Below are positions 1,914-41,817 of a DNA stretch of 64,000 nt, piece by piece. Source of the DNA: Alphaproteobacteria bacterium. Lineage in GTDB: Bacteria > Pseudomonadota > Alphaproteobacteria > Sphingomonadales > Sphingomonadaceae. The number at the start of each line of letters is the position of its first letter. Within the stretch, counting starts at the first letter, position 1. The stretch covers positions 193,034 through 257,033 of the forward strand of contig JAUHWC010000003.1 in NCBI GenBank assembly GCA_030424845.1, read 5' to 3'. The notes below the pieces were generated by a model. It saw only the letters and a program-made list of their open reading frames with translations, did not search any database and was not told the DNA's origin. The position numbers and the translations under genes were made by a program.

Positions 1914-3743
1914 GTGGGATCCGTACGTGTCATAAGCCAGCGCGCCAAGCGCATTGCCAACCCTTTCCTGGCAGGCATGCTGTGGGTGGGGCTGGCCATG
2001 CTTTGCACCGGAATGCGCGATGCAGCCGGGGCATTGCTGCTGGTATGGTGGCCCACCGGCGTGGTGGTGGCATGCCTGCAGACCACCCGGCGGCGCGACT
2101 GGCCACTCGCCCTTGCAATAATGGGGCCCTTCATCATCGGCTGGGTGCTGTTTTACGGGCGTCCGCTACCGACGGCGCTGGGCTATGCCTCATCCACCCT
2201 GACGGAAGCCTGGCTTTGCGTCACGCTGTGCGCGCGCATCCTGGGAGAGGGAAACCGCTTGCCGCGTACGCTGGGCCAGATTGCGGGAATGTTCGCGGTT
2301 GCCTTGATTGCCTGCGCCGTGGGTACCGCGATCGCCTATCCCTTCTTCATCGAGCAAAGCCTGGCAGAGGCGGCATGGTGGTATCTTGCCAACGTGATTG
2401 CCATGCTGGCGGTGGCTCCGGTGCTGGTGGCGCTGTGTCGGGCGTTGTCCCGCGGCGAGCAGACATTGCCCAAGGGAATGACGGTCGAATTCGTTCTTTC
2501 CGCGACGGCATTGGTCGGGTTTTCGCTGGTCATCCTGCAGGTCAAGGGCCTGCTGCTGATGCCGGTCATGGTCGGCATGATCATCCTCGCTTCGGTTCGC
2601 TACGGCCAGATAGGCACTGTGGTGGCCGTGCTCGCCCTTGCCATGGGGGCAACGCTCACCAGCCTTGGCGGGCAGCAGCTGGCAGCCTTCGACGGTTTGC
2701 CGCGGGCGACGAGCGGCCTCGTCCTGCAGCATTGGATGCTGCTGATGCTGGCGATCTCGCTTCCCATCTGCGCCATGCTGATGCGACGCGAGGAACTGGA
2801 GGCCAAGCTGCGCCAGCGTAATCGCGAGCTGCGGCAGAACGTGACGATCTTCGATCTTGCAGAAGACCTGGCGGGCGTGGGGCGCTGGCGATACGACTTG
2901 CGAACGGGGCGGCAGGAATGGTCCGAACGAATGCTGGAAATGAACGGGCTGGACCGTTCGCTGGCACCTGATCCAGGCGATGTGCGCGCCTTGCTGCCCG
3001 ATGGCGGACAGGAGTTGTTCGATCGCATCGCCCGGCACCGGGATGACTGGGAGCCCTACAGCTTCAACTATCGCGTCCATCCGGAAGACAAGACCGAGCG
3101 CACCCTGCGGATTTCGATCCTCAACGAGTTTGACGCTGCGGGAGAGCGCATTGCCCTTTTCGCCGTGGCGATTGACGTGCCCGACCATGTGCGGCGCGAG
3201 GAGGCGCTGGACAAGGCCCGCGGGCGCGCGGTCAAGCTGGCGGCAGAGGCGCAGGTGCTGGCCAATACCGATCCGCTGACCGGCCTGCCCAACCGGCGTT
3301 GTTCGCTGGAACGGCTGCGCGCTGCGGTCGAGAATGCCCGCGAGAGCGGCCGCCCCCTGTGCGTGGTGATGTTCGATATCGATCACTTCAAGCAGGTGAA
3401 TGACGGGCATGGCCACCAGACGGGCGACGATGTGCTGGTCCACGTGGCGGAGATTGCCCGCCAGCAGGTGCGCGGGACCGACCTTGTCGGGCGGATCGGC
3501 GGCGAGGAGTTCGTCTGGCTGATCCCGGGCGTCGGCATGACCGAGGCTCACCAGCTGGCCGAACGCTTGCGGTCCGCCATAGCGGCGGGAAGCGGCCTGC
3601 CGGGCTTGCCTGCCGTCACCACATCGATCGGGCTTGACAATTTGCGACCCGGCGACGATGCGGAGGGCATCCTCAAACGGGCGGACCTGGCTCTCTATGC
3701 CGCCAAGGAAGCGGGCCGCAACCGGGTTCGCCTTGCCGCCTGA
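1914..3743 (+). CDS. Membrane-bound diguanylate cyclase (MASE1-like membrane domain, PAS-like region, GGDEF domain)
   Basis: 609 aa. The N-terminal half is polytopic and hydrophobic. The C-terminus carries DPLTGLPNRR ... FDIDHFKQVND ... RIGGEEF, which is the GGEEF active site. The start codon is uncertain (GTG at 1914). Confidence 0.85.
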   Translation: MGSVRVISQRAKRIANPFLAGMLWVGLAMLCTGMRDAAGALLLVWWPTGVVVACLQTTRRRDWPLALAIMGPFIIGWVLFYGRPLPTALGYASSTLTEAWLCVTLCARILGEGNRLPRTLGQIAGMFAVALIACAVGTAIAYPFFIEQSLAEAAWWYLANVIAMLAVAPVLVALCRALSRGEQTLPKGMTVEFVLSATALVGFSLVILQVKGLLLMPVMVGMIILASVRYGQIGTVVAVLALAMGATLTSLGGQQLAAFDGLPRATSGLVLQHWMLLMLAISLPICAMLMRREELEAKLRQRNRELRQNVTIFDLAEDLAGVGRWRYDLRTGRQEWSERMLEMNGLDRSLAPDPGDVRALLPDGGQELFDRIARHRDDWEPYSFNYRVHPEDKTERTLRISILNEFDAAGERIALFAVAIDVPDHVRREEALDKARGRAVKLAAEAQVLANTDPLTGLPNRRCSLERLRAAVENARESGRPLCVVMFDIDHFKQVNDGHGHQTGDDVLVHVAEIARQQVRGTDLVGRIGGEEFVWLIPGVGMTEAHQLAERLRSAIAAGSGLPGLPAVTTSIGLDNLRPGDDAEGILKRADLALYAAKEAGRNRVRLAA

Positions 3744-3842: not shown

Positions 3843-5216
3843 ATGGCCACTGGCGCCACTGCGGAAACGCGTTTCGACGTTGCCGCCCTGATTGACAATC
3901 GGCCCATTGGCAGCCGCGAGATATTCACACTGGTCGTGTGTTCCATCGTCCTGTTCATGGACGGGTTCGACATGTATTTCCTCGGCAAGATCCTGCCTGA
4001 CATTGCCGAGGGGCTGGGCGGGACCAGCGTGGACATGCAGCCCGTCGTCACCTTCCAGCAGTTCGGCATGCTGATCGGCGCGATCATCATTCCGCCGCTT
4101 TCGGACAGGATCGGGCGCAAGCCGGTGCTGGCGCTGTGCCTGCTGATGTTCGGATCGCTCACCCTGTGGGCGGCCTGGGCAAGCGGCTTCACCATGCTTG
4201 CTGTCCTGCGCGGCATTGCCGGAATCTTCTTCTCGGCCATGTTGCCCGTTGGACTTGCCATCATTTCCGAAGCGACGCCCAAGCGCCGCCGCGCGCTGTT
4301 CATGTCGATCGCGCTGGTTTGCTTTTCGGGTGGCAACCTGGGCAGCGGCTTCATGGTGACCCTGCTGCTCGAGCCCTATGGCTGGGAAATCTTCTTCATC
4401 CTCGGGGGTATAGTGCCGCTGGTGGCCATGTTCCTGCTGCTGCTGATCCCGGAAAGCGTGGCCTTCCGCGTCAACCGCAACCCGGCCGACCCGCGCATTC
4501 CCGACATGCTGCGCCGGCTCGACCCCGATGTGCAGCTGACGGGGACCGAGACTTTCCACATGGGTGACCAGGCCGAAGTGGAGAAGCTGGGCCCGCTGGC
4601 CATGTTCGGCCCGCGTTTCCGCATGCAGACGATCCTGCTGTTCGCCATCTGCTTCTTCTCGCTGGGCAATATCGCCTTGCTGGCCAACTGGCTTGCCACC
4701 TTCATGCTGGAAATGCGCGGCGTGCCGCTGACCGATTTCGCCTTCTACATGATCATCGGCTATTTCGGTGGCGCGGCGGGAACGCTGGCCATGGGCTGGC
4801 TGATGGATCGCCTGAACGTCTACCGCGTGTTGGCGGTCTATTTCGTGATCGATGCCATCGCCATTGCCTCCATCGGCATGGTCGATGCGCAGGTGGCGGT
4901 GATGCTTGTGACGGCGCTGGTCGTGTGGAACTTCTGCCAGGTTGGCGGGCAGACAGGCATCAACAACCTTGCAACGCTTGGCTATCCGCCGGAAATGCGG
5001 TCGAGCGGGATCGGCTGGGCAGGGGCGATGGGCCGCTTCGGCGGGGTGATCTTCCCGGCGCTGGGCGGCATGGCGCTGGCAGCCTCGCTGTCACTGGAAA
5101 CGATCATGTTTGCCGCCGCCGTGCCGGCCATCCTGATCGCGATCCTGATCACCATCCTGGGAGTCGTGAACAAGGGCCACATCAGCGCCGCACATATTCC
5201 CGCCAGGTCTACCTGA
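3843..5216 (+). CDS. MFS transporter (aromatic acid / organic anion symporter-like)
   Basis: 12-TM-like hydrophobic profile with the MFS motif SDRIGRKP after TM2. I chose ATG 3843 because it is preceded by GGGAGGGGG. The ORF track starts at 3792. Confidence 0.8.
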   Translation: MATGATAETRFDVAALIDNRPIGSREIFTLVVCSIVLFMDGFDMYFLGKILPDIAEGLGGTSVDMQPVVTFQQFGMLIGAIIIPPLSDRIGRKPVLALCLLMFGSLTLWAAWASGFTMLAVLRGIAGIFFSAMLPVGLAIISEATPKRRRALFMSIALVCFSGGNLGSGFMVTLLLEPYGWEIFFILGGIVPLVAMFLLLLIPESVAFRVNRNPADPRIPDMLRRLDPDVQLTGTETFHMGDQAEVEKLGPLAMFGPRFRMQTILLFAICFFSLGNIALLANWLATFMLEMRGVPLTDFAFYMIIGYFGGAAGTLAMGWLMDRLNVYRVLAVYFVIDAIAIASIGMVDAQVAVMLVTALVVWNFCQVGGQTGINNLATLGYPPEMRSSGIGWAGAMGRFGGVIFPALGGMALAASLSLETIMFAAAVPAILIAILITILGVVNKGHISAAHIPARST

Positions 5217-5298
5217 TCGATCGTTGCCCGGACGAAAACAGGCGGGCCGGCATCAGCCGTCCCGCCTGCTTCGTTCCCGGGGAGGATCGGCCCGGGTG

Positions 5299-6729
5299 CT
5301 ACAGGTCCCAGTCGTAATGATCGGCCAGCATGCGCGGCTCGAAGCCGTATGACCGTGCATTGGGATCGAACAGCATCTGGCTGTTCCAGTTGGCATGTGC
5401 CTGTTTCAACTCGGCAAAGAGCTCGGGCATGCGGTCCTTCAGGTTGCCACGCTCCATCGGGTCCGCGATGATGTCGAACAGGAATTCGTTGTCGTTGATC
5501 TTGAGGTACTTGTAGCGTCCGCGGCGGACCGCCTTCTGGTCCTTGCTCCAGTATCGCCAGAACTGCGTACGCTCCGGCATCGGGCGACCCATCAGGGCCG
5601 GACCGAGGTCGATCCCGTCGAACGGATAGTCGGGATGCGCGTCGCCATCGGCAGCGGCGAGGAAAGTGGGCAGGAAGTCCATCGACATCGCCGGCACTTC
5701 GCTGATCGAACCCGGCGCTGTCACACCAGGCCACTTGACGATGAACGGCACCCGGATGCCGCCTTCCAGCAGCTCCGTCTTGATGCCGGTGAAGGGCCAG
5801 GTCTTGCTGAAACGTTCCCCGCCGTTGTCGCTGGTGAACACGACCACGGTATCCTGCTCCATCCCGAGTTCCGCCAGGCGGTTGAGGATGCGGCCGATGT
5901 TCATGTCCATCGACGTGACCATGCCGGCATAGGTTTCCATGGTGCCGCCATCGAAATGGACGATGTCGAGATCATCCTGTGACGGCAATTCGGCAAGCCG
6001 CGCGCTCTCGCTGCGGCCCAGCGCGTCATTTGCTTCCCAGGGCCAGTGCGGGGCGGTGAAATGGAGCGAAAGCAGCCACGGCTTGTCTGGTTCGCCCGAG
6101 CGTTCGTTGAGGAAGCGGATCGAACGGTCGGCGAGCATGTCGGTGTAGTAACCGACTTCCTCCACCAGCACGTCGCCGTCCCAGACATCCTCGTTCCCGG
6201 CCACGCGATGGGTAAAGTAATCCACCCCGCCTCCACGGTTGCCGTAGAACTCGTCATAGCCGCTCTTGAGCGGGCCGTAATTTGGCAGCAGGCCCAGGTG
6301 CCATTTGCCGACCAGCGCCGTGTGATAACCCTGTTGCTTCAGCAAGGAAGGCATGGTCGGATGCGTCGGGTCCAGCCCCAGGTCGGGGTTCTGCAGCGGC
6401 TCTTCCAGGCCGGCGGGCGTGCGATACTGGTACCGGCCCGTGATCAGGCCCACGCGGGTGGCAGAACACACGGCGGAATTGGCATAGCCGTGGGTGAACT
6501 TCATGCCCTGTGCCGCAAGGCCGTCCAGCACCGGCGTGGTATATTCCGTGCGTCCGTAGCAGGACAGGTCTGCATAACCCAGGTCATCGGCCATGATGAA
6601 AAGGAAGTTGGGCTTGCGACGGGCTTCATGAGCCAGGCCAGGGACTGTCACGGCCAGTGCGGCTGTGCCAAGGGCGGTGGCCATTGCATCGCGGCGGGTC
6701 AGTTTCGGAAAGCTGGTCTTGTCAGTCAC
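5299..6729 (-). CDS. Sulfatase (Cys-type, formylglycine-dependent), Tat-exported
   Basis: MADDLGYADLSCYG and the C-S-A-T-R formylglycine motif followed by LITGRY. The N-terminus has a twin-arginine signal, LTRRDAMATALGTAALAV. The track ORF extends to 6819; the likely start is GTG 6729. Confidence 0.85.
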   Translation of the reverse strand: MTDKTSFPKLTRRDAMATALGTAALAVTVPGLAHEARRKPNFLFIMADDLGYADLSCYGRTEYTTPVLDGLAAQGMKFTHGYANSAVCSATRVGLITGRYQYRTPAGLEEPLQNPDLGLDPTHPTMPSLLKQQGYHTALVGKWHLGLLPNYGPLKSGYDEFYGNRGGGVDYFTHRVAGNEDVWDGDVLVEEVGYYTDMLADRSIRFLNERSGEPDKPWLLSLHFTAPHWPWEANDALGRSESARLAELPSQDDLDIVHFDGGTMETYAGMVTSMDMNIGRILNRLAELGMEQDTVVVFTSDNGGERFSKTWPFTGIKTELLEGGIRVPFIVKWPGVTAPGSISEVPAMSMDFLPTFLAAADGDAHPDYPFDGIDLGPALMGRPMPERTQFWRYWSKDQKAVRRGRYKYLKINDNEFLFDIIADPMERGNLKDRMPELFAELKQAHANWNSQMLFDPNARSYGFEPRMLADHYDWDL

Positions 6730-6848
6730 GGAATCGGATTCCCCCGGAGGCAGAGAGAAAGTTTGGGAGGCAGGGCTGGTGCGATTTGTGGTGGGAACAC
6801 CGGCCCTGCCAAGTGGCACGGATAAGGATACCGTGCAACGTCACCGGA

Positions 6849-9800
6849 TCACATGCGGACCCTGACGCCTACGGTGAAACGGCGTCCCAACACGTCATAA
6901 AGCGACGCATTGTACTGGTTCGAATACCCCAGGAAGGCGCTGTACGAAGGCGTGATCGGCGGAGACACGTCACCCAGGTTGGTGATGTTGCCGAACACTT
7001 CCATCTCTGCGCCACCTATGTCGAACTCGTAGCCCAGGCGAAGGTCGATGTAGGTGACCGAAGACACGGAATTGTCCTCGATCGTGCTGCCTTCGACCCG
7101 GCGAATGTCATGAATACCCGAACCGATGTGGCGCACCTGCACAAGCGTGGAGAAACCCCCGTTGCGATAGGTGATCCCGCCGGTTGCCTTGAAATCGGCA
7201 TAGGGCAGGTAGACGCCGGAGTTCTGCGTGGCACCGGTCTGTCCGGCGAAGTCCACGGTATTGCCGTTGAAGTCCGTTTCCGAACGCTCGAACAGCCATG
7301 ACGCGAAGAAGCGGCCGCTGAGCGTTTCCTCGCCTCCGAAGAAGTCCACGTCGGTGTTGTAGGACGCTTCGAAGTCGAGGCCTTCCACGGCGGCCTGCGC
7401 CACGTTTACGAACACGTCGCCTACCAGGGTGATGTCACCCGTGGCGGTTGGCGTTGCCGGCCCGGTGGTCAGCGTGATCAGGTCACAGAACTCCTGCGCA
7501 CTGTCTCGGAAGCAGCGGTCAACCACTTCCTGGTTGCCGACCTGGCTGATCGCCCCGTCGATCTTGATGTTGTAATAGTCGAGGCTGAGCGACAGGCCCT
7601 GCAGGAAGTCCGGCCGGAACACCACGCCTGCGGTGAGGGTGTCGGCCTCCTCGGGTCGCACGGCAGGGTTGCCGCCCGAGAAGCGCGTGACGGTCAGCGC
7701 TTCGATGGCAGTTGTGCGCGGATCGTCGATGGTGGCAGAGCCGCCCGTCTTGTCGAAGCGTTCCGACAGGTTGCCGGCGCGCACGTCACGCGAATAGGTA
7801 CCGCGAAGGCGCAGTTGCTGGTCCATGAAACCCAGTTCGATACCGCCCTTGTATGCCCAGATCGAGCCTGAGCCGGAATAATCCGCCCAGCGCACTGCGG
7901 CGTTGGCATTGGCGGTAAAGCCGTTGCTGTCGACCAGCGGCAGCAGAAGTTCGCCGAATGCTTCCCAGACGGTTGCCGAACCCTTGATGTTGGACACCTT
8001 GGAATATTGCAGGCCGACGGTGTTCAGGCAGTCCGGGACGCTGACACCGCGCAAGCCCGGAGCCTCGCCGCTGCAAAGCACCGGATGGCCGTTTTCGTGG
8101 TCGGACGGCGGGTTGGTGGGATCCTGCACCAGCTGCAGGATCTCGTCCCGGCGATAGGAGCCACCGAAGGCGCCCGCCAGCGGGCCGGCCCACAGGTCGA
8201 TGATGTCACCGGCACCGGAAAGTTCCGCGAAGTGCTGCTCGAACGTGGTGATGTTCGTCTTCTCGGGGTTGGTGGTGTAGGTGTAGCTGCGGCCCGAGGC
8301 GAAACCATCGTCAGCAAAGAAGATCGGCGTGGTGATGGTCTGGCCGGGTTCATAGCCCACGACATAGTCAATCGCCGCGGCCGAGGCATTGCCGCGTCCG
8401 AACAGGTTGAGCGGTTGGCATCCCGGGAAGGCATCGCCGAAAAGTGACGTACGGCAGACGATGTTCCCGTTCGGCGTTCCGTTCAGGTACTCGCCTTCGT
8501 CGACCGCGTCGATCGCGGCGAAGATGCGGTCTACGCGCAGGCCGTTCTGCTTCCACACGCGTTCCGAATGGCCGTACTGGTAGAAACCGTCGATGGTCCA
8601 CCCGCCGAGGAAGCCGTCATTGTCGAGGTCCATCGTGAAGCCGGCCACGCCGATGTGCTGCTTGGTGGTATCGTCGAGATAGCCCAGGCCGATATCCTCC
8701 AGCGAACCCATGCGGCGCAGGGTAAAGCTTGCGATCCCTTCGTTTTCCATCGTGTCCCGCAGGTCAGCCGGGAGGAAGGCGTTATCGGCGAAGATCGTCA
8801 GCGCCGTGGGCGTTCCGCCAAAGCTGGAACGCGGCGTGTTGTACTGCCAGATATGCGTGCGGCCGTGCAGATACTGACCGAACACGGTGAAATTGTCCGT
8901 CAGCTCGTAATCGGCATAAGCGAAGATCGAATAGCGATCGAGGTCCGGATAGAGGCTGGCCACTTCTGCGCCCAGGTCATCATTCGGACCGCCGGCGGTG
9001 CGTGCCGGGGGAATGCCGAATTGGAACTGGCTAAGCGTGCCGGGAGTAAAGGCCTGCGTGGTGCCGGCACGGGTGAACTCCAGTGCATGGATCGCCGTGC
9101 CCGGCGCGAAAATGCGCCCGTCGAAGCTGGCGTTGGCCGAAACCGTCTGCGGCACGAAGCGATAGGGATCGGCAGTGGTGCCGGAGCCGAACGTGCCATA
9201 GGCATCGTACCAGTCGCGCTTGTCGTAGTTGAAGACTCCCTTCTGGTCATAATACTCGCCGGAGACGAGAAAATGGCCGCGGCCGCCAGCGAAGCTGGTG
9301 CCGTAGGCAGCGGAAATCTCGTAGTTCTCGGCATCGCCGCGGTCTGTCACGCCGCCCTGCGCACTAAACTGCAGGCCTTCGTAATCCGTATCGAGCACGA
9401 AGTTCACAACACCGGCCACTGCGTCCGAACCGTAAGCCGCGGATGCACCGCCCGTGGTGGTTTCCACCGACTGGATCATGGCTTCGGGAAACAGGTTGAT
9501 GTCCACGCCGCCAAAGGCGCTTGTGGAGGGTACCCGGCGGCCGTTCAGCAGCGTCAGCGTGCGGTTGACGCCCAGGCCGCGCAGGTTGAGCGAGCCATAG
9601 CCCGAACGGACGAAGAAGTTGCCCGAGTTGGGCGTCTGGTTGCCATAGAACTGCGGAAGCTGCGAAACGCCGGTGATCAGCGCACCGGGCGACAGGGTCT
9701 CGATCTCTGCGGCGGCAACAACGGTGACAGGCACCGGAGCCTGCATTCCGTCGGTGCGGATGCGCGAGCCGGTGATCAGGATGATGTTGTCACCCTGGCG

Positions 9801-9944
9801 GTTTTCTTCCGCGGATGCATCTTCCCCATCCTGAGCCTGCGCGCCGGTGGCACCCAAAACCAGTGCCAAGGCGCTTGCGCCGCAAGCCAGCCAATTACGA
9901 TTGTTGCGCGCCGAACGGCGCACACGGCTCTGTGCACGAGACAT
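6849..9944 (-). CDS. TonB-dependent outer-membrane receptor
   Basis: 1031 aa. Signal peptide ending AQAQ, plug-domain motifs (IILITGSRI, VETTTGGASAAYGSDAVAGVVNFV), and a C-terminal beta-barrel ending RRFTVGVRVRM. Confidence 0.9.
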   Translation of the reverse strand: MSRAQSRVRRSARNNRNWLACGASALALVLGATGAQAQDGEDASAEENRQGDNIILITGSRIRTDGMQAPVPVTVVAAAEIETLSPGALITGVSQLPQFYGNQTPNSGNFFVRSGYGSLNLRGLGVNRTLTLLNGRRVPSTSAFGGVDINLFPEAMIQSVETTTGGASAAYGSDAVAGVVNFVLDTDYEGLQFSAQGGVTDRGDAENYEISAAYGTSFAGGRGHFLVSGEYYDQKGVFNYDKRDWYDAYGTFGSGTTADPYRFVPQTVSANASFDGRIFAPGTAIHALEFTRAGTTQAFTPGTLSQFQFGIPPARTAGGPNDDLGAEVASLYPDLDRYSIFAYADYELTDNFTVFGQYLHGRTHIWQYNTPRSSFGGTPTALTIFADNAFLPADLRDTMENEGIASFTLRRMGSLEDIGLGYLDDTTKQHIGVAGFTMDLDNDGFLGGWTIDGFYQYGHSERVWKQNGLRVDRIFAAIDAVDEGEYLNGTPNGNIVCRTSLFGDAFPGCQPLNLFGRGNASAAAIDYVVGYEPGQTITTPIFFADDGFASGRSYTYTTNPEKTNITTFEQHFAELSGAGDIIDLWAGPLAGAFGGSYRRDEILQLVQDPTNPPSDHENGHPVLCSGEAPGLRGVSVPDCLNTVGLQYSKVSNIKGSATVWEAFGELLLPLVDSNGFTANANAAVRWADYSGSGSIWAYKGGIELGFMDQQLRLRGTYSRDVRAGNLSERFDKTGGSATIDDPRTTAIEALTVTRFSGGNPAVRPEEADTLTAGVVFRPDFLQGLSLSLDYYNIKIDGAISQVGNQEVVDRCFRDSAQEFCDLITLTTGPATPTATGDITLVGDVFVNVAQAAVEGLDFEASYNTDVDFFGGEETLSGRFFASWLFERSETDFNGNTVDFAGQTGATQNSGVYLPYADFKATGGITYRNGGFSTLVQVRHIGSGIHDIRRVEGSTIEDNSVSSVTYIDLRLGYEFDIGGAEMEVFGNITNLGDVSPPITPSYSAFLGYSNQYNASLYDVLGRRFTVGVRVRM

Positions 9945-10042
9945 GCTTGTTATTCCTCCCCTTTGTTACAGCTTCGGGCATTCCTCCCGGGGAGCACTCT
10001 TGGCAACGCATGGCAAAGTGATGAAGAGACATTGACTTCAGG

Positions 10043-10067
10043 TTATGGCTTGGGGATAAACCCATAA
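10043..10067. promoter_or_regulatory. Inverted repeat TTATGG-N13-CCATAA, candidate LysR-type binding site
   Basis: Hand-read palindrome in the divergent TBDR/LysR intergenic region. Its right arm abuts the LysR ATG at 10067. Confidence 0.3.
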
Positions 10068-10999
10068 TGCCGAACCTGCCTTTCACCTTGCGCCAGCTCG
10101 AAGTGTTTGAAGCCATTGCCCATACGCAGAGCTTCCGGCGTACCTCGGAAAAGCTCGGGATTTCGCAGGCATCGGTCAGCAACCAGATCAAGACGCTCGA
10201 AGAACAGCTGGGCGTGGTGCTGCTTGATCGCAGGCCGGGCCGCAATCCGGTGCTGATGCCCGAGGGGTTGGCGTTTCAAGACGATCTCCGCCGCTTCCAC
10301 GAGGCAGCCCTGCAACTGGCAAGCCACCGGCGCGATGATCCCTTCGCCACGCCGACTGTCCGGAAATTACGCGCCCTCGTGGGGCAGGGCATGTTCGATT
10401 CCTACATCCGCCGCCAGCTCGATGCCTTTTTTGCCCGCAACCCCGATATCGAACTGGAGTTCGACACGCAGTTGCCTTTCGGCCAGCTGTTTCGTGCAGT
10501 CGAGCAGGGAGAGTTCGACTTTGCGCTGATCCACCAGCGCGCGGACCATACGATCCACCGCGACTTCCGCGAGATCGCTATCGTGGAAGGGGGGGTCTAC
10601 GGCCATCGAAAGTTTTCCGAAGGACATCCGCTGCCCCTGCCGATCGAAGTGCTCAACAGCTTGCCGTTCATCCTGCCCAAGGCCACCAGCAAGCATGAGC
10701 GCGAGGTGATCCGCAATTATGCTGAAAACGGTATCCACCCGCGCCACGTCATCGGCCACACCCAGTATTTCGACGTGATCGGGGCCATGCTTGACCGCGG
10801 GTTGGGTGTCGCTTCCTTTTCCGATGCGATCCTTTCCCCGGAGATGCGCAAGAACGTGATCCTGCTCAAGCCGATGCAGAAATGGCGCTTGCTCTATTTC
10901 CGCAAGCCTGCGCCGGATGATGCGGCGGCAAACGTGGCAGAACAATTCCTGTTCGCAAGCGTGCGCGACAATCCGGATTATCCGAGCCTGCCGGCCTGA
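10067..10999 (+). CDS. LysR family transcriptional regulator
   Basis: N-terminal wHTH (LRQLEVFEAIAHTQSFRRTSEKLGISQASVSNQIKTLEEQLG) plus a substrate-binding-type C-terminal domain. Confidence 0.88.
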   Translation: MPNLPFTLRQLEVFEAIAHTQSFRRTSEKLGISQASVSNQIKTLEEQLGVVLLDRRPGRNPVLMPEGLAFQDDLRRFHEAALQLASHRRDDPFATPTVRKLRALVGQGMFDSYIRRQLDAFFARNPDIELEFDTQLPFGQLFRAVEQGEFDFALIHQRADHTIHRDFREIAIVEGGVYGHRKFSEGHPLPLPIEVLNSLPFILPKATSKHEREVIRNYAENGIHPRHVIGHTQYFDVIGAMLDRGLGVASFSDAILSPEMRKNVILLKPMQKWRLLYFRKPAPDDAAANVAEQFLFASVRDNPDYPSLPA

Positions 11000-36726: not shown

Positions 36727-37908
36727 ATGACACTGCCATTCGGCAAAACCGCACTCCTTGCAGGGGCTGCGGCCCTGCTTGCGCCGGTGTGCGTTTCCGC
36801 ACAGGATTACCGGGACCTGACAGCCGAAAGCAGCGATGTGCTGATCTTCGAGGGCGAAGTGAGCGAGGCGCCGGTGGTCTTCCGCTATACCATGGCCCCT
36901 TCCACCTCGTTGCAGATCGACGTGATCCCCACCGAAGAAAGCGAGCTGGATCCCATCCTGACCGTAACCGATGTTGCCACCGGAGAGGTGCTGGCGGAAG
37001 ACGATGACGGGGGTGGCGGGCTGGCTTCGCGCGCACGCATCTACGCCGAGGAAGGGCGTGAGGTGGAGATCACCGTTTCTGCCTATGCGTTCTTTTCCGG
37101 CGAGGAGAGCTCCGGACCGTTCGAGCTGGTCCTGCGGCCCGGTACGAACGAACCGCAAGACCTGACGGCGGTAGAGTTCGGCGGTGTCAGCGAGGGTGAC
37201 CTCGGTCCCGGCGGCGTCCATCTCTACACCCTGTCCGGACAGGAGGGCGAGATGCTGCAAGTGGCGATGATCGCCGGCAGCGACGATCTCGATCCCTTGC
37301 TCACGCTTTACCGGGGCGAGGGGACCAACGGCGAGGAACTGGCCAGCGATGACGACGGCGGCGATGGCCTCAATTCGCTGCTGCGTTTCGTCCTGCCGGA
37401 AACGGGCAGCTATACGATCGCCGCCCAGGCCTATGGCGGCAGCGCCGGCGATTACACCTTGCGCGTGGCCCCGCAGCGCAGCCACACGATCCAGTCCCCG
37501 CAGCAGGTGATCTCGCTGGATGAACGCGTATCCGGCTATCTTGGAACGGGTTATGAAAACGGCGGCCTCGATCCCTCCGAAATCACCTATCAGCTGACGC
37601 CGGAGGCGATTGCGGCGATCCGCGAGGGGCGCGGCGAAGTGACCATCAACATGACCACGCCGCTGTTCGAGGATGAATATTTCCCGAGCTCCATCGATGC
37701 CTTTGTCGAACTGGGGTTCGAAACCCCGCTGGGCTTTGCCGGCATGCTGAGCGACGATGATGGCGGCGACGGGCTGAACGCGCGGCTGGTGATCGACCTG
37801 TCACCCATCGCCAACGACGGGGACTGGCTGGAGCGCCTGCGCATCCGGGCCACGTCGATCGGCAATGCCGGGGCATTCGAGATCGAGCTTGTCGAGGGAG
37901 GACAATAG
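36727..37908 (+). CDS. Secreted protein with three pre-peptidase C-terminal (PPC)-like repeats
   Basis: Signal peptide, then three roughly 100-aa units. Each unit has DP(I/L)LT(V/L)... then (S)DDDGG(D/G)GL, and ends with a Y/F-x-(L/I)-x-(L/V) strand. Confidence 0.6.
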   Translation: MTLPFGKTALLAGAAALLAPVCVSAQDYRDLTAESSDVLIFEGEVSEAPVVFRYTMAPSTSLQIDVIPTEESELDPILTVTDVATGEVLAEDDDGGGGLASRARIYAEEGREVEITVSAYAFFSGEESSGPFELVLRPGTNEPQDLTAVEFGGVSEGDLGPGGVHLYTLSGQEGEMLQVAMIAGSDDLDPLLTLYRGEGTNGEELASDDDGGDGLNSLLRFVLPETGSYTIAAQAYGGSAGDYTLRVAPQRSHTIQSPQQVISLDERVSGYLGTGYENGGLDPSEITYQLTPEAIAAIREGRGEVTINMTTPLFEDEYFPSSIDAFVELGFETPLGFAGMLSDDDGGDGLNARLVIDLSPIANDGDWLERLRIRATSIGNAGAFEIELVEGGQ

Positions 37909-38026: not shown

Positions 38027-39289
38027 TCAGCCGTCGGCCTCTTCCTCGTCATCGGCTGGCGGGGGCGGGCCGAAGCCCGGGCGCGGGCCGGTGCCGGGGT
38101 CATGGTCGAAGGGCTGGGCGAAACGGCTGCGGTCGTCATTCTCGGCCGTGACAGGATCTTCCTCGCCAGCGGCGATGCGGGCCTGCTGCGCACGCGAAGC
38201 GCTGATGTAGTCGCGCGGCATGTAGTTGCCTTCATGGCAGGCGTATTCGAAGAAGGTGTAGTCCTCGTCACGCGTCCATTCGATGCGCGTCGTCCACGGC
38301 TGGGTATAGACCTGCGGGTCGGAATAGGTCAGCTCGTGCACGATGGCATCGTCGCTGGTCATCGTCAGGCGTTCCACCGTCATGGCTTCGGTGCTCATCG
38401 GGACAGTATTGAAGGCGGGAACCTCCAGCGTGCCGGTGAACTGCGTTGCCATGTTGAGCGGCGAGGCCGAGCGCTTGTAGACATCCTCGGTCGCGCTGTC
38501 GCCCGAGACGATGTTGGTCGTCTCGATCACCAGCGTGTTGCCTTCCCACCAGCCGCGCGAATTACCCATCCATGCCTCCACGCTCTCGTCCCACTTGGCG
38601 GCCTGGGCTTCTTCCTTGCTGTCATAGATCTTGACCACGCGCGTGCCGAGCATCTCGAGCACGATCGTCATGTAGCCCGGGCTCTGGAACACGCGGATGC
38701 CGTTGTTGTAGCGGAAAGGGTACATGGAAGCAGGGAAACCGCGCGAAACGCAGCGGTCCCAGCTGTCGAAGTCGTCCACCCAGTCATAGGCCTGGCCGGG
38801 CACCCAGCCCGAACGGCCGGCCTGGAACAGGGCCATGGCTTCCGGCGTCAGGTCCGGCAGCTGGCCGTCAGCCGGGGAAACCAGCATGGAGGTGCGCTTG
38901 CCGAAATCATGCGTCAGGAACCACGCCTCAAGGCCGGAGGTGCCGCTGGCGCCGATGCCGCTTTCATTGGCCTGGGTGAAATTGCCGTCCTGCTGGCGAG
39001 CGGCGGCAAGGCGGCGCTCGAATTCCTCGTCAGTCACCCAGAAGCGATCGCCGTAATGGGCAGGGCGCTGGAACAGGATACGGCCGTTGTTGATCGGCTC
39101 GATCGGCCATGTGCCGGTGAAATCGGGATCGCCCCAGGGCAGGCGGGCCGGCTCGTAATCGGTCGGCACGGGCGGCAGGTAGGACAGGTCGTCAGGACGC
39201 TCCTGCGCGGCGGTGGTGCCGGCGGTGATGGCGATGGACGCAACACCTGCGGCAATGGCAAACTTCTTCAAGAGACCTTTGCGGGTCAT
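38027..39289 (-). CDS. Conserved hypothetical secreted protein
   Basis: 420 aa with a signal peptide. The Trp-rich blocks (GWWEGNTLVIETTN, YTQPWTT, FEYACHEGNY) look like a family I cannot name. Acidic/Pro-rich tail. Confidence 0.6.
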   Translation of the reverse strand: MTRKGLLKKFAIAAGVASIAITAGTTAAQERPDDLSYLPPVPTDYEPARLPWGDPDFTGTWPIEPINNGRILFQRPAHYGDRFWVTDEEFERRLAAARQQDGNFTQANESGIGASGTSGLEAWFLTHDFGKRTSMLVSPADGQLPDLTPEAMALFQAGRSGWVPGQAYDWVDDFDSWDRCVSRGFPASMYPFRYNNGIRVFQSPGYMTIVLEMLGTRVVKIYDSKEEAQAAKWDESVEAWMGNSRGWWEGNTLVIETTNIVSGDSATEDVYKRSASPLNMATQFTGTLEVPAFNTVPMSTEAMTVERLTMTSDDAIVHELTYSDPQVYTQPWTTRIEWTRDEDYTFFEYACHEGNYMPRDYISASRAQQARIAAGEEDPVTAENDDRSRFAQPFDHDPGTGPRPGFGPPPPADDEEEADG

Positions 39290-39410
39290 AGATCGGGCTC
39301 CCTTCCCAATGTGACTTTGCCCGTGTCGTTAAGGCAGTTTCCGGCGTGATGCCAGAGCCGAGGTTGATTCAGTCTGTAATATTTTGTCGTCGCCGCACCT
39401 CCCATCGATC

Positions 39411-39462
39411 AACGAAAAGGGGCCGTCAGGAGGCGCATCCCTTGCACCCGCCTGACGGCCCC
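39411..39462 (-). terminator. Intrinsic terminator ending the low-GC cassette
   Basis: Minus strand: GGGGCCGTCAGG-(20-nt loop)-CCTGACGGCCCC followed by TTTTCGTT. It lies 31 nt after the stop of mini-ORF B. Confidence 0.8.
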
Positions 39463-39492
39463 GTGACGTAACTCGTGATCGATGAGCGAGGT

Positions 39493-39579
39493 TTAGTCCT
39501 GCGCGCCCTGATCGTTAGCGCGTTTCCCGGCTTCGTCCCGCAAGCGTTCAGTAAAGTCTTTCGCCACTTGTCCAGGCAT
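39493..39579 (-). CDS. Mini-ORF B, 28 aa (MPGQVAKDFTERLRDEAGKRANDQGAQD)
   Basis: ATG 39579 has AAGGAG 7 nt upstream. It shares MPG-x8-RLRDE, in the same register, with mini-ORF A. A terminator follows. It is below the ORF-track cut-off. Confidence 0.55.
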   Translation of the reverse strand: MPGQVAKDFTERLRDEAGKRANDQGAQD

Positions 39580-39655
39580 TCTCTTTCTCCTTCTCGCAGT
39601 AAACGGGTGGAACCTCCCACCGAAAGCTATCCAGCCGGTCCAGGGTTATGCCAAT

Positions 39656-39766
39656 TCAGCCCTTCGGGGGTTCTGTCTCCCGAGATGGTTTGGCCGCTGC
39701 TTCCATGCGGCTTCGCATCTCGTCCCTAAGGCGAGCCTGGATCGAATGTTTCCTCATTCCCGGCAT
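39656..39766 (-). CDS. Mini-ORF A, 36 aa (MPGMRKHSIQARLRDEMRSRMEAAAKPSRETEPPKG)
   Basis: ATG 39766 lies 2 nt after the TGA of the upstream gene, with GGAG 7 nt upstream. It is a paralog of mini-ORF B. Confidence 0.55.
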   Translation of the reverse strand: MPGMRKHSIQARLRDEMRSRMEAAAKPSRETEPPKG

Positions 39767-39768
39767 AA

Positions 39769-40167
39769 TCAGTCTCCACTGAAGAGTTGATCGAAGAACT
39801 CCCGTTCAATATCAGATTCCGGCGCGTTTTCAAAACCTTTCATGCACTCGTAACTCTTGGCCATCGTCGACGGGAAGAAGCGATCCGGCCCGTGCTTGCA
39901 TTGGTAAGGCTTGTATTTGCGGATCGAACAGAGACCGGCGTCATCAAGGAAGACGCAGCGCCCATCGTTATCCTTGATGTGGTAGACATCCTGCCCGGCG
40001 ATGTCGCTCAACTCGGCATTGCGTTCGAAGTAAGCCTGCTCGATCCAGGCAAGGTCGCGGTCCTGCCTGTCCGCAATCCGCTGGCGGTCAGCCTTCAAGG
40101 CGATCACGATATCCCTGCGGCCAAGGTTGGTGCAGCACAGGCCGCACTGGGTGCACTCGAACTTCAC
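39769..40167 (-). CDS. YkgJ-family cysteine-cluster protein (CxxCxxCC, putative Zn/Fe-chelating domain)
   Basis: The N-terminus MKFECTQCGLCC matches the CxxCxxCC signature. Further Cys residues are at DGRCVF, GLCSI, YQCK and YECM. The GTG start is preceded by GGAGGTG. Confidence 0.75.
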   Translation of the reverse strand: MKFECTQCGLCCTNLGRRDIVIALKADRQRIADRQDRDLAWIEQAYFERNAELSDIAGQDVYHIKDNDGRCVFLDDAGLCSIRKYKPYQCKHGPDRFFPSTMAKSYECMKGFENAPESDIEREFFDQLFSGD

Positions 40168-40171
40168 CGGT

Positions 40172-40975
40172 TCACACCTCCACCTTTTCGAAACGGTAAT
40201 GCACCCAGTATCGCTCCCCCACCTTCGGTCGCTTGATGACCAGTGTCACCATGCTGCCATCCGGCGATACATTGGGCTCCACCGACCGTCCGCTATCGAT
40301 CTCGGCAAGGGTTTGCGAATCCCGCACGCTGAAACGCGGCTCGATCAGCACGAACTTGTAGCCGAAGGGGGCATAGGCGAAGACCGTCGCCCTGCGACAC
40401 GTGACATTGAGCCCGAAGCCGAAGTTTGTCCCGCGCGCCTCGAAGGCCTCCATCTCGGTCCCCGGCGTGATGATCTCGGCAATGTAGGAAATCTCTTCCT
40501 TGGGAGCGAGGCTGGGGTTGATCCTGGGCTGCCACATGTAGCGGTAGTTCTGGTCGTCCCCCGGCATGCGCTGCATGTTGATGGGGTCGATCTGCGGTGC
40601 CTTGTCGCCGCTACTTATCCGTCGGTCCTTGAAGCGGCCGCGTTGGTAGAGGCGGTAAATGATGCTGTCCTGCGGGATCGGCGCGTACCACAGGAGGTTT
40701 TCCTCGGGCAGGACAGCCGACTGGTGCCAGCCATTGACCAGGTCAAAGCGGTTGCGGGTGATGACCGTGCCGTCTTCGAGATAGAAATAGTGATATTCCG
40801 CCGACTTGTAGAACGGATCGTAGGAAACGGCGTTGTAGATCTTTGCCAGGACACGCAACGCCAGGATGCCGGCTGCCAGGAGGAAAATCAGCAGCAGATA
40901 TGCCGCGTCCTTAAGGCCGATCGTTGCTGACAGCAGCTTGATCGTCCGCTCGTCATCGATAAACAGCGCGATCAC
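40172..40975 (-). CDS. Hypothetical membrane-anchored protein (N-terminal TM, about 220-aa aromatic-rich soluble domain)
   Basis: 267 aa from GTG 40975. TM helix AAYLLLIFLLAAGILALRVLA. No family recognised. The same frame continues upstream through one TAA (41009-41011) to ATG 41038 (see findings). Confidence 0.6.
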   Translation of the reverse strand: MIALFIDDERTIKLLSATIGLKDAAYLLLIFLLAAGILALRVLAKIYNAVSYDPFYKSAEYHYFYLEDGTVITRNRFDLVNGWHQSAVLPEENLLWYAPIPQDSIIYRLYQRGRFKDRRISSGDKAPQIDPINMQRMPGDDQNYRYMWQPRINPSLAPKEEISYIAEIITPGTEMEAFEARGTNFGFGLNVTCRRATVFAYAPFGYKFVLIEPRFSVRDSQTLAEIDSGRSVEPNVSPDGSMVTLVIKRPKVGERYWVHYRFEKVEV

Positions 40976-41175
40976 GGGCCCAAGCAGGATCGCGGCGATA
41001 CCCAGCGCTTAAAGGATCGATATCTTCATCCTGGGCATATCGAAACTCGCAAATTACAAGGGCCTGCCTGATGGGACACTTGTCCAGCTTGTCGGGTGGG
41101 AAGTCAAATCCGTTGCCACTTGTCCGGTTAGAACCGGGTTGCAGGGCAGGGCGATCGTTGCGTCCCGCTTCCCCC

Positions 41176-41204
41176 TTGACCCACCCCATCCACCCCGCTA
41201 AAGG
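41176..41204 (+). promoter_or_regulatory. Candidate sigma-70 promoter of the str operon (TTGACC-N17-TAAAGG)
   Basis: Hand-read -35/-10 spacing. It would give a leader of about 235 nt before rpsL. Confidence 0.35.
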
Positions 41205-41445
41205 CGCGCGGTCCCGGACGGGGGCTTGCCCCTTGTCCGACATATAGAGCTGAACATTGCCGGTGAGGTCTTCTGCGAAAGGCTGCCGTCAAAGTAACCG
41301 GTGCCTTAAGGCACCAGGTGGAGCGTTTCAGGCTCGCGCGAATTGTCGCCAGGCCCACTCCCAGCGGTGCGGCCCCGCTTTCGCGCGATCCCGATACATT
41401 CCATCTGGTTCCGACGGCACCTCATAACCAAGGTGAAGTCACTTA

Positions 41446-41817
41446 ATGCCTACTATCAACCAGCTTGTCCGCAAGCCGCGCCAGCCGATCGTCAAGAAGA
41501 GCAAGTCCGCGGCCATGCAGGCCAACCCGCAGAAGCGCGGCGTCTGCACCCGCGTCTACACGACCACGCCGAAGAAGCCGAACTCGGCACTTCGCAAGGT
41601 TGCCAAGATCCGCCTGACCAACAGCCGTGAAGTCATCGCCTACATCCCGGGCGAAGGCCACAACCTGCAGGAGCACTCCGTGGTGCTGATCCGCGGCGGC
41701 CGTGTGCGCGACCTTCCCGGTGTGCGCTACCACGTGCTGCGCGGCGTTCTGGACACGCAGGGCGTGAAGGATCGCAGGCAGTCCCGCTCGAAGTACGGCG
41801 CCAAGCGTCCGAAGTAA
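41446..41817 (+). CDS. rpsL: 30S ribosomal protein S12
   Basis: [12 protein letters not shown]...[12 protein letters not shown]... Confidence 0.98.

Follow-up and report, generated by a model that had tools for sequence, protein, structure and literature searches.

A putative conserved microprotein gene and its probable tandem paralog at the 3´ end of a rare CxxCxxCC-protein operon

What is encoded by two neighboring open reading frames (ORFs) of 36 and 28 amino acids (aa) that close an alphaproteobacterial operon and carry no annotation? The window analyzed here is a 64,000-nucleotide (nt) stretch of Alphaproteobacteria bacterium (Sphingomonadaceae; assembly GCA_030424845.1, contig JAUHWC010000003.1, positions 193,034 to 257,033). 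Both ORFs lie on its minus strand: mini-ORF A at 39656..39766 (MPGMRKHSIQARLRDEMRSRMEAAAKPSRETEPPKG, 36 aa) and mini-ORF B at 39493..39579 (MPGQVAKDFTERLRDEAGKRANDQGAQD, 28 aa). The initial annotation had described a tandem pair that begins with MPG and carries RLRDE at residues 12–16, with a canonical Shine-Dalgarno (SD) sequence at 7-nt spacing before each member and with a cysteine-cluster gene and a terminator on either side; all of these features were recovered from the sequence. It had further proposed that the peptides resemble precursors of peptides that are made on the ribosome and modified after translation (RiPPs), or that they could be small regulators or antitoxin-like. The reading favored here, with moderate confidence, is that the region forms the 3´ end of a tightly packed operon, in which A is a tail peptide of a CxxCxxCC protein and B is a tandem paralog of A.

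The 3´ end of the operon comprises four ORFs. Gene 1 (40172..41038, minus strand; translation compared with the relative P0001) encodes a 288-aa protein with a predicted membrane anchor and β-sandwich. Gene 2 (39769..40167, minus strand), which starts 4 nt past the stop of gene 1, encodes a 132-aa YkgJ-like CxxCxxCC protein, a putative metal- or Fe-S-cluster protein that is assigned by Pfam to PF03692. The TGA stop of this gene occupies 39771-39769, and the ATG of A, the third gene, follows after a gap of 2 nt. The SD sequence of A (GGAG, 39777-39774) is located 7 nt 5´ of the ATG and lies within the last codons of gene 2. A 76-nt spacer separates A from B. Relative to the CxxCxxCC stop, B lies 187 nt downstream; an SD sequence of its own (AAGGAG, 39592-39587) is again located 7 nt 5´ of the ATG. 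A Rho-independent terminator (39411..39462, minus strand) is located 3´ of B. Its 12-bp G+C stem, in which 39462-39451 pairs with 39430-39419, encloses an inner stem and is followed by TTTTCGTT. The terminator was overlooked by a simple pattern scanner because its loop is long. The 261-nt region that holds it (39660-39400) folds more stably than its shuffles (z = -3.8). The spacer between A and B contains a small hairpin (GGTGGG-AGGTT-CCACCC, then GTTT; 39605..39621, minus strand), recognized from sequence and RNA fold, which could be a weak attenuator that lowers read-through into B or an RNA-stabilizing element that stabilizes the upstream transcript. The terminator palindrome was also compared by eye with an integron attC site, and this candidate was rejected since the core GTTRRRY is not matched.

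Neither peptide is present in a collection of 15 billion proteins that does contain the neighboring genes of the same 435-kb contig, which indicates that both ORFs are unannotated. By its ribosomal protein S7, the organism belongs to the Erythrobacteraceae. Standard gene callers missed them in this genome, and longer homologs were called in other assemblies.

The position of A is conserved in every cassette examined. Every obtainable locus of the 288-aa family was fetched, which yielded 12 distinct cassettes from alpha- and gammaproteobacteria. At each fetched locus the gene of the 28x-aa protein is directly followed by the CxxCxxCC gene. All 12 distinct cassettes carry an ORF with an MP[SGA] start: in 10 it is separate and begins between -10 and +4 nt from the CxxCxxCC stop, and in 2 it is fused to the CxxCxxCC gene. 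The search for MPG-type peptides beside CxxCxxCC genes, which the initial annotation had suggested, is therefore positive for A, and the loss of frame in related cassettes that it had named as grounds for dismissal was not observed. Nearly all related cassettes have GGAG or GAGG ~6–10 nt upstream of the peptide, where it falls within the final codons of the CxxCxxCC gene. The frame of the peptide relative to the upstream gene differs between loci, which is the pattern expected of independent, translationally coupled ORFs. A shares this placement, with its start at most ~10 nt from the CxxCxxCC stop and its SD sequence inside the gene, and B does not.

The peptides of these cassettes form one family with a conserved N-terminus. 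The closest relative of A is the L013 peptide (MPGYRSSLLKSRIEAERANR..., MPGYR...), which is encoded beside a 288-aa protein 64% identical to that of the window; across the related cassettes this identity is ~40–64%. Other members begin MPSGPAITLANKIQSLKSQKK (L001), MPSGPAITMKKKIESAREIRK (L016), MPSGPAINMGIAIENELKKQ (L007), MPSAPVDNIGMAIDNERNRK (L011), MPAAPPQIVVEIAKKASKKN (L005) and MPAAPARDLLDAALTARRAL (L018). The Parvibaculum peptide (L010/L024) begins MPSGPAIAMKNKIVLAKQRK; the Parvibaculum copies are identical to one another, and the index lists 317 blocks of the collection for this peptide. The Thalassospira peptide (L004) is MPSGPASVILKKIKEQRKAK, with a total length of 20 aa. No gaps are needed to align the first ~21 residues. 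M1 and P2 do not vary, position 3 carries a small residue and hydrophobic residues occupy positions 9 and 13. At position 5 most members have Pro, A and the L013 peptide have Arg, and B has Val. Both A (MPG, I9, L13) and B (MPG, F9, L13) fit this ungapped alignment. Past the conserved ~20 aa the tails are hydrophilic, do not align and range in length from 0 to about 36 aa; the tail is wholly missing in the Thalassospira peptide. An amphipathic helix over residues 6–20 was considered and dropped, as the hydrophobic moment is not above that of shuffles for most members.

The codons of this block indicate what is being conserved. The third positions of its Pro, Ser, Gly and Ala codons differ freely across loci while the amino acids are kept, so that the constraint acts on the protein. 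A comparison of L001 with L016 shows the same residue at 17 of the first 27 positions, with a synonymous codon change at 11 of these; the other 10 codons differ non-synonymously. These observations bear on the alternative that the conserved element is an RNA or DNA feature, such as a small RNA, an attenuator or a repeat, and is not coding. Such a feature would suit the strongly structured 3´ region and the hairpin between A and B. However, no Rfam match was found over 38500-41600, amino acids rather than codons are kept across cassettes, and in-frame fusions of the peptide exist. Furthermore, A and B share only 44% of their nucleotides (29/66) compared with 41% of their residues, and four of their nine shared residues use different codons (CCG/CCT, CTT/TTG, AGG/CGG and GAG/GAA). 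The likeness of A and B thus resides in the protein and not in a DNA or RNA repeat, which the initial annotation had allowed for as a way to be wrong. An RNA or DNA feature is highly improbable for the region as a whole and is effectively refuted for A.

A profile search with the peptide family returned only peptides of these cassettes, so that the family seems confined to the cassette context. Pfam, NCBIfam, PADLOC and PHROGs gave nothing meaningful for A and B. Judged from position and sequence, A is a genuine small-protein gene and the conserved third component of a rare, horizontally mobile cassette, and the clade formed by the window and L013 (MPG-x-R...) is a divergent branch of the peptide family.

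Natural fusions link the peptide to the CxxCxxCC protein. Four independent sequences from different lineages carry the peptide as an in-frame extension of the CxxCxxCC C-terminus: P0044 (...FFNALMEDK-MPSGPAINMGVQID..., junction ..EDK-MPSGPAINMG..), P0051, which corresponds to locus L009 (...LLYEEND-MPAAPMDGMLEIAA..., ..END-MPAAPMDG..), P0056 (...LLEDC-MPSGPIRNIGVAID..., ..EDC-MPSGPIRN..) and P0079 (...KEEQQ-MAGGPASNIFSSIQ..., ..EQQ-MAGGPASN..). Fused forms were found both within the CxxCxxCC subfamily and at loci L009 and L027. By the Rosetta-stone argument, these fusions indicate that the peptide functions together with the CxxCxxCC protein, as a detachable tail or partner of this protein or possibly as its substrate. 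The junction Met is kept in all four natural fusions; the fusions may be recent, the internal ATG may still be used as a start, or the Met may be important in its own right. AlphaFold modeled the CxxCxxCC domain of the P0044 fusion with confidence, while residues 4–14 of the tail have a predicted local distance difference test score (pLDDT) below 50. One short helix of the tail reaches ~72 pLDDT and the remainder looks disordered.

The CxxCxxCC protein itself is a small member of its superfamily. It matches PF03692 with E = 4.1e-8 and 34.2 bits (cutoff 23), and the alignment of its subfamily shows eight invariant or nearly invariant cysteines (C6, C9, C12, C13, C72, C81, C91 and C109). The subfamily is small, with 30 representatives at E < 1e-10 in an exhaustive search of 1.84 billion proteins, and a word-indexed homolog search with the 132-aa protein returned only the protein itself. 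No PDB analogue was found by Foldseek or by sequence. Against the FliB model NF038110, the protein scores 19.9 bits (cutoff 85), with residues 47–83 aligned to positions 51–84 of the 373-position model.

Just 14 clusters among 5.8 billion proteins make up the rare 288-aa family, whose members typically have 283–288 aa, and no Pfam, NCBIfam, PADLOC or PHROG match was obtained for the protein of the window. Its AlphaFold (AF2) model (pLDDT 83) comprises helices at residues 8–26, 29–39 and 42–71, two of which are hydrophobic, followed by an all-β domain. Foldseek returned only weak matches (TM 0.3–0.4) to non-catalytic β-sandwich domains, which included the N-terminal domain of M1 aminopeptidases and LTA4H, the putative protease 3kd4 and ribophorin. 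In the window, codon 10 of the gene for this protein is a TAA stop (41011-41009, minus strand) that interrupts the reading frame. This codon is polymorphic, being TAA in the window and in L021 and GAA (Glu) in L019 and in P0001 (T versus G), the latter an intact protein that is 99% identical to that of the window. The longest open frame past the nonsense codon restarts at GTG 40975 and encodes 267 aa. The membrane protein is therefore either inactivated here or restarted at this GTG with loss of most of the first hydrophobic helix.

B resembles A in sequence rather than in placement. Shared by the two peptides are MPG at residues 1–3, RLRDE at residues 12–16 and R20, and 9 of 22 residues are identical when both are aligned from the start codon. 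Of the 1421 other open frames in the window that are anchored at an ATG, none attains 8 identities to A or B, and at least 9 anchored identities are observed in only 28 of 149,878 ORF pairs (~2e-4). The matches are also not evenly placed: B equals A at six of the seven positions where A equals its L013 ortholog (M1, P2, G3, R12, E16 and R20) and at three of the 15 remaining positions (Fisher p = 0.0066, or 0.014 without M1). Because of the anchored identity, the synonymous differences and the match at positions that A shares with its ortholog, B is probably a lineage-specific tandem paralog of A. The SD sequence of B is strong, and the terminator was placed after B and not after A. It is reasonably probable from these features that B is translated and functional. 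Decay of a second cassette was considered as the origin of B and rejected, as no second CxxCxxCC or 288-aa fragment is present in the window. A second peptide copy was found in none of the other cassettes examined, and B is present only in this strain population. Tandem copies, which the initial annotation had likened to those of RiPP precursor families, are accordingly no trait of the peptide family but a feature of this population.

Several results weigh against the favored reading, and those that concern B are shared by the alternative that A is real while B is a fortuitous ORF within the 3´ untranslated region before the terminator, its likeness to A being coincidental. A profile that was derived from 13 N-termini of the family (first 20 residues, A and B excluded) placed neither peptide among the best 12 of 4199 start-anchored frames of the window; the membership of A therefore rests on its position, its MP start and the bridging L013 ortholog rather than on significant similarity. 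The tail is not docked on the CxxCxxCC domain in the P0044 model, to which about five alignment rows with the tail contributed. The nonsense codon in the 288-aa gene suggests that the cassette may be decaying or counter-selected in this strain. Translation of A and B is predicted from sequence. As for B, all five available copies of the segment (the window and L019-L022) are identical over the mini-ORFs and so give B no comparative support, and no other cassette contains B. Plain unanchored tblastn of A against B within the window gives E = 0.16–0.25. The GC content at third codon positions (GC3) of B is 0.59 and thus not raised, compared with 0.74–0.81 in the neighboring cassette genes, although codon-position GC is uninformative for ORFs as short as A and B. 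With 87 nt, B is also under the usual gene-caller size. A chance ORF, however, would have to account for an ATG preceded by AAGGAG at the optimal 7-nt spacing, for an anchored identity that is exceeded or equaled in only ~2e-4 of ORF pairs and by none of the other frames, for the concentration of the matches at ortholog-shared positions and for a terminator that lies 3´ of B rather than of A. A fortuitous origin of B is thus possible but doubtful.

The cassette occupies a variable segment of the genome. Its GC content is 0.55–0.58, compared with 0.62–0.66 in the surrounding sequence. A related genome (L023, GCA_030431435.1) shows 79% homology over 5.4 kb (its positions 4903-10207), and this homology ends at position 39387 of the window. 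In place of the cassette, upstream of a shared 420-aa gene, L023 carries RadC, a sigma-70 region-4 protein and small ORFs. It follows that A and B, together with both larger genes and the terminator, belong to a strain-variable segment that lies between the 420-aa gene and rpsL. The genomic contexts of the other cassettes are mutually unrelated, so that the cassette is a self-contained unit; most of these contexts consist of housekeeping genes. The cassette was not found on plasmids or viral contigs.

Two neighboring genes of the window, at 38027-39289 (minus strand, 420 aa) and 36727-37908 (plus strand, 393 aa), are conserved in L023. No confident Pfam domain was found in either product; a weak PPC match was obtained for the 393-aa protein only.

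Other cassettes are accompanied by genes of their own. A fourth gene of 201–221 aa is located 3´ of the peptide module in L001 (5456-6061), L007 (5352-6017) and L027 (2596-3237), and its truncated start is found in L016 (~3468-3549). The product contains an invariant LAPH-x-D ... WHGR and matches the PF13640 2OG-FeII_Oxy_3 model below threshold (E ~0.01 in two members); it may be a prolyl-hydroxylase-like modifier. This gene, which is missing from the window, accompanies peptides of the MPSGPAI[TN] type. In Thalassospira and Parvibaculum, an ABC1/UbiB-family kinase-like gene lies directly 3´ of the cassette (L004 5413-6792; L010 ~1158-2468; L024/L025 4457-5839) and is 55% identical between the two lineages, which could reflect conserved synteny or a functional link. 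In the gammaproteobacterial metagenome-assembled genome OFTM290 (L005 422-3666), the cassette is located directly 3´ of a 698-aa UPF0020/N6_N4 methyltransferase and a NERD nuclease-domain protein. This context resembles a defense island and is shared by no other locus.

Could the peptides be substrates? In a RiPP-like system, A and B would be precursors modified by the CxxCxxCC protein and elsewhere also by the adjacent protein resembling a 2-oxoglutarate (2OG) oxygenase. Recognition would fall to the conserved N-terminus, with the variable C-terminus as the core, and the fused and split forms would parallel borosins. In favor of such a system is the pattern noted in the initial annotation, a conserved N-terminal segment of ~20 aa followed by a variable C-terminus. 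The tandem diverged copies in the window, the Lys- and Arg-rich composition of many peptides and the probable HxD...H oxygenase gene of at least three cassettes, which is located after the peptide in L001, L007 and L027 and truncated in L016, are in keeping with it. The coexistence of enzyme-peptide fusions with split forms is also known from borosins (10.1101/2021.12.24.474128), and the CxxCxxCC relatives FliB (PMC8598068) and DpdM (10.1101/2023.04.13.536721) are unconventional methyltransferases. On the other hand, Pfam and NCBIfam showed no protease, exporter or RiPP recognition element (RRE) domain in the cassette of the window, and none is listed in the gene tables of the other loci. No residue of the tail is conserved or typical of modification. 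A single Cys occurs in one of 12 peptides and none in A or B, and the L004 homolog, at 20 aa, lacks a core altogether. Of FliB, the 132-aa protein corresponds to the cysteine-cluster part only, with a score far below the model cutoff, and Pfam and NCBIfam predict no catalytic activity for it; the oxygenase-like gene is missing from the window and the tandem copies are unique to this strain. Moreover, the fusions in four lineages suggest that the peptide is a subunit or tail or, at the utmost, a substrate that is modified in cis. The RiPP reading is therefore weakly supported and on the whole unlikely. This estimate concerns the role of the peptides, while that given above for a chance ORF concerns B alone, and the two readings overlap.

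A more specific variant is an undescribed modifying system, in which a minimal [4Fe-4S] CxxCxxCC protein related to FliB and DpdM would modify its own C-terminal tail in the fused form or a free, co-translated peptide in the split form (A and B). Some cassettes would add a 2OG oxygenase acting on MPSGP, and the membrane protein would receive or present the product. The near-invariant MPSGP motif could then be the target of the prolyl-hydroxylase-like 2OG oxygenase. This proposal, which follows the logic of fused and split borosins, is regarded as unlikely.

A toxin-antitoxin-like or anti-phage defense module, with the small peptides neutralizing or regulating the membrane protein, would agree with the rare and patchy occurrence of the cassette in a strain-variable island and with the one copy that adjoins a methyltransferase and a NERD nuclease. 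It would also agree with the polymorphic nonsense mutation of the membrane protein in the population; such gene loss is common for costly or toxic genes. However, no PADLOC, Pfam, NCBIfam or PHROG match to such a system was found for any component, so that the antitoxin-like idea of the initial annotation gained nothing from PADLOC or Pfam. The absence of the cassette from plasmids and viral contigs and the housekeeping character of most contexts also speak against a defense role. Furthermore, the peptide is fused to the CxxCxxCC protein and not to the membrane protein that it would be expected to neutralize. A module of this kind is improbable.

The tail-peptide reading, to which we return, would work as follows. 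A would be the free-standing form of the C-terminal tail that is fused to the CxxCxxCC protein in other lineages. It would be made in step with that protein through translational coupling and would act while attached to it. The contact piece would be the conserved N-terminal segment, with its Met-Pro-small-x-Pro/Arg start and the hydrophobic positions 9 and 13, and the charged, probably disordered tail of variable length would provide a flexible extension. This tail might reach a membrane partner or a substrate, or might itself be the site on which the cluster protein acts. B would be a strain-specific tandem paralog that supplies a second version of the tail.

The gene of A encodes a conserved, previously undescribed microprotein and is tied to an uncharacterized branch of the CxxCxxCC superfamily. 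The genome thereby gains an unannotated, evolutionarily constrained microprotein family that is the obligatory split or fused partner of a small CxxCxxCC/YkgJ branch, and the split/fused pair offers a handle for assigning a function to this branch. If the peptide is modified, the locus would represent a new peptide-modification cassette. For gene calling, the locus is a caution that ORFs as small as A and B can be missed by standard callers.

Three groups of known systems invite comparison. To our knowledge, FliB and DpdM are the only members of the CxxCxxCC/YkgJ superfamily with a known activity, and both are unusual Fe-S methyltransferases. FliB is a [4Fe-4S] flagellin lysine N-methyltransferase, in which the cluster is bound by a related Cys motif (PMC8598068), and DpdM is a preQ1 methyltransferase described as a YkgJ homolog (10.1101/2023.04.13.536721). 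Gene 2 of the window likewise encodes a bona fide PF03692 member with eight conserved cysteines. In contrast, its product has only 132 aa, matches 37 residues of the FliB model and resembles no solved structure. No small partner peptide for YkgJ, FliB or DpdM is described in the literature found.

In borosins, the precursor is fused to the C-terminus of the methyltransferase or is encoded by a separate adjacent ORF (10.1101/2021.12.24.474128; PMC8429565). The cassette shares this arrangement of a short peptide that is either a C-terminal extension of its neighbor or a separate ORF immediately downstream. It differs in having no S-adenosylmethionine (SAM)-dependent α-N-methyltransferase domain and in a variable tail without conserved residues; the likeness is one of layout only.

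Some small accessory proteins are translationally coupled to a partner enzyme and are sometimes fused with it, through gene fission or fusion that yields Rosetta-stone pairs. The peptide family of the cassette differs from such accessory proteins in that no Pfam, NCBIfam or PHROG model represents it and in that it occurs in a rare cassette only. The same features are present: adjacent or overlapping stop and start codons, an SD sequence inside the upstream gene and fusions in some lineages. Taken together, this adjacency, the internal SD sequence and the fusions predict a physical or functional link between the peptide and the CxxCxxCC protein.

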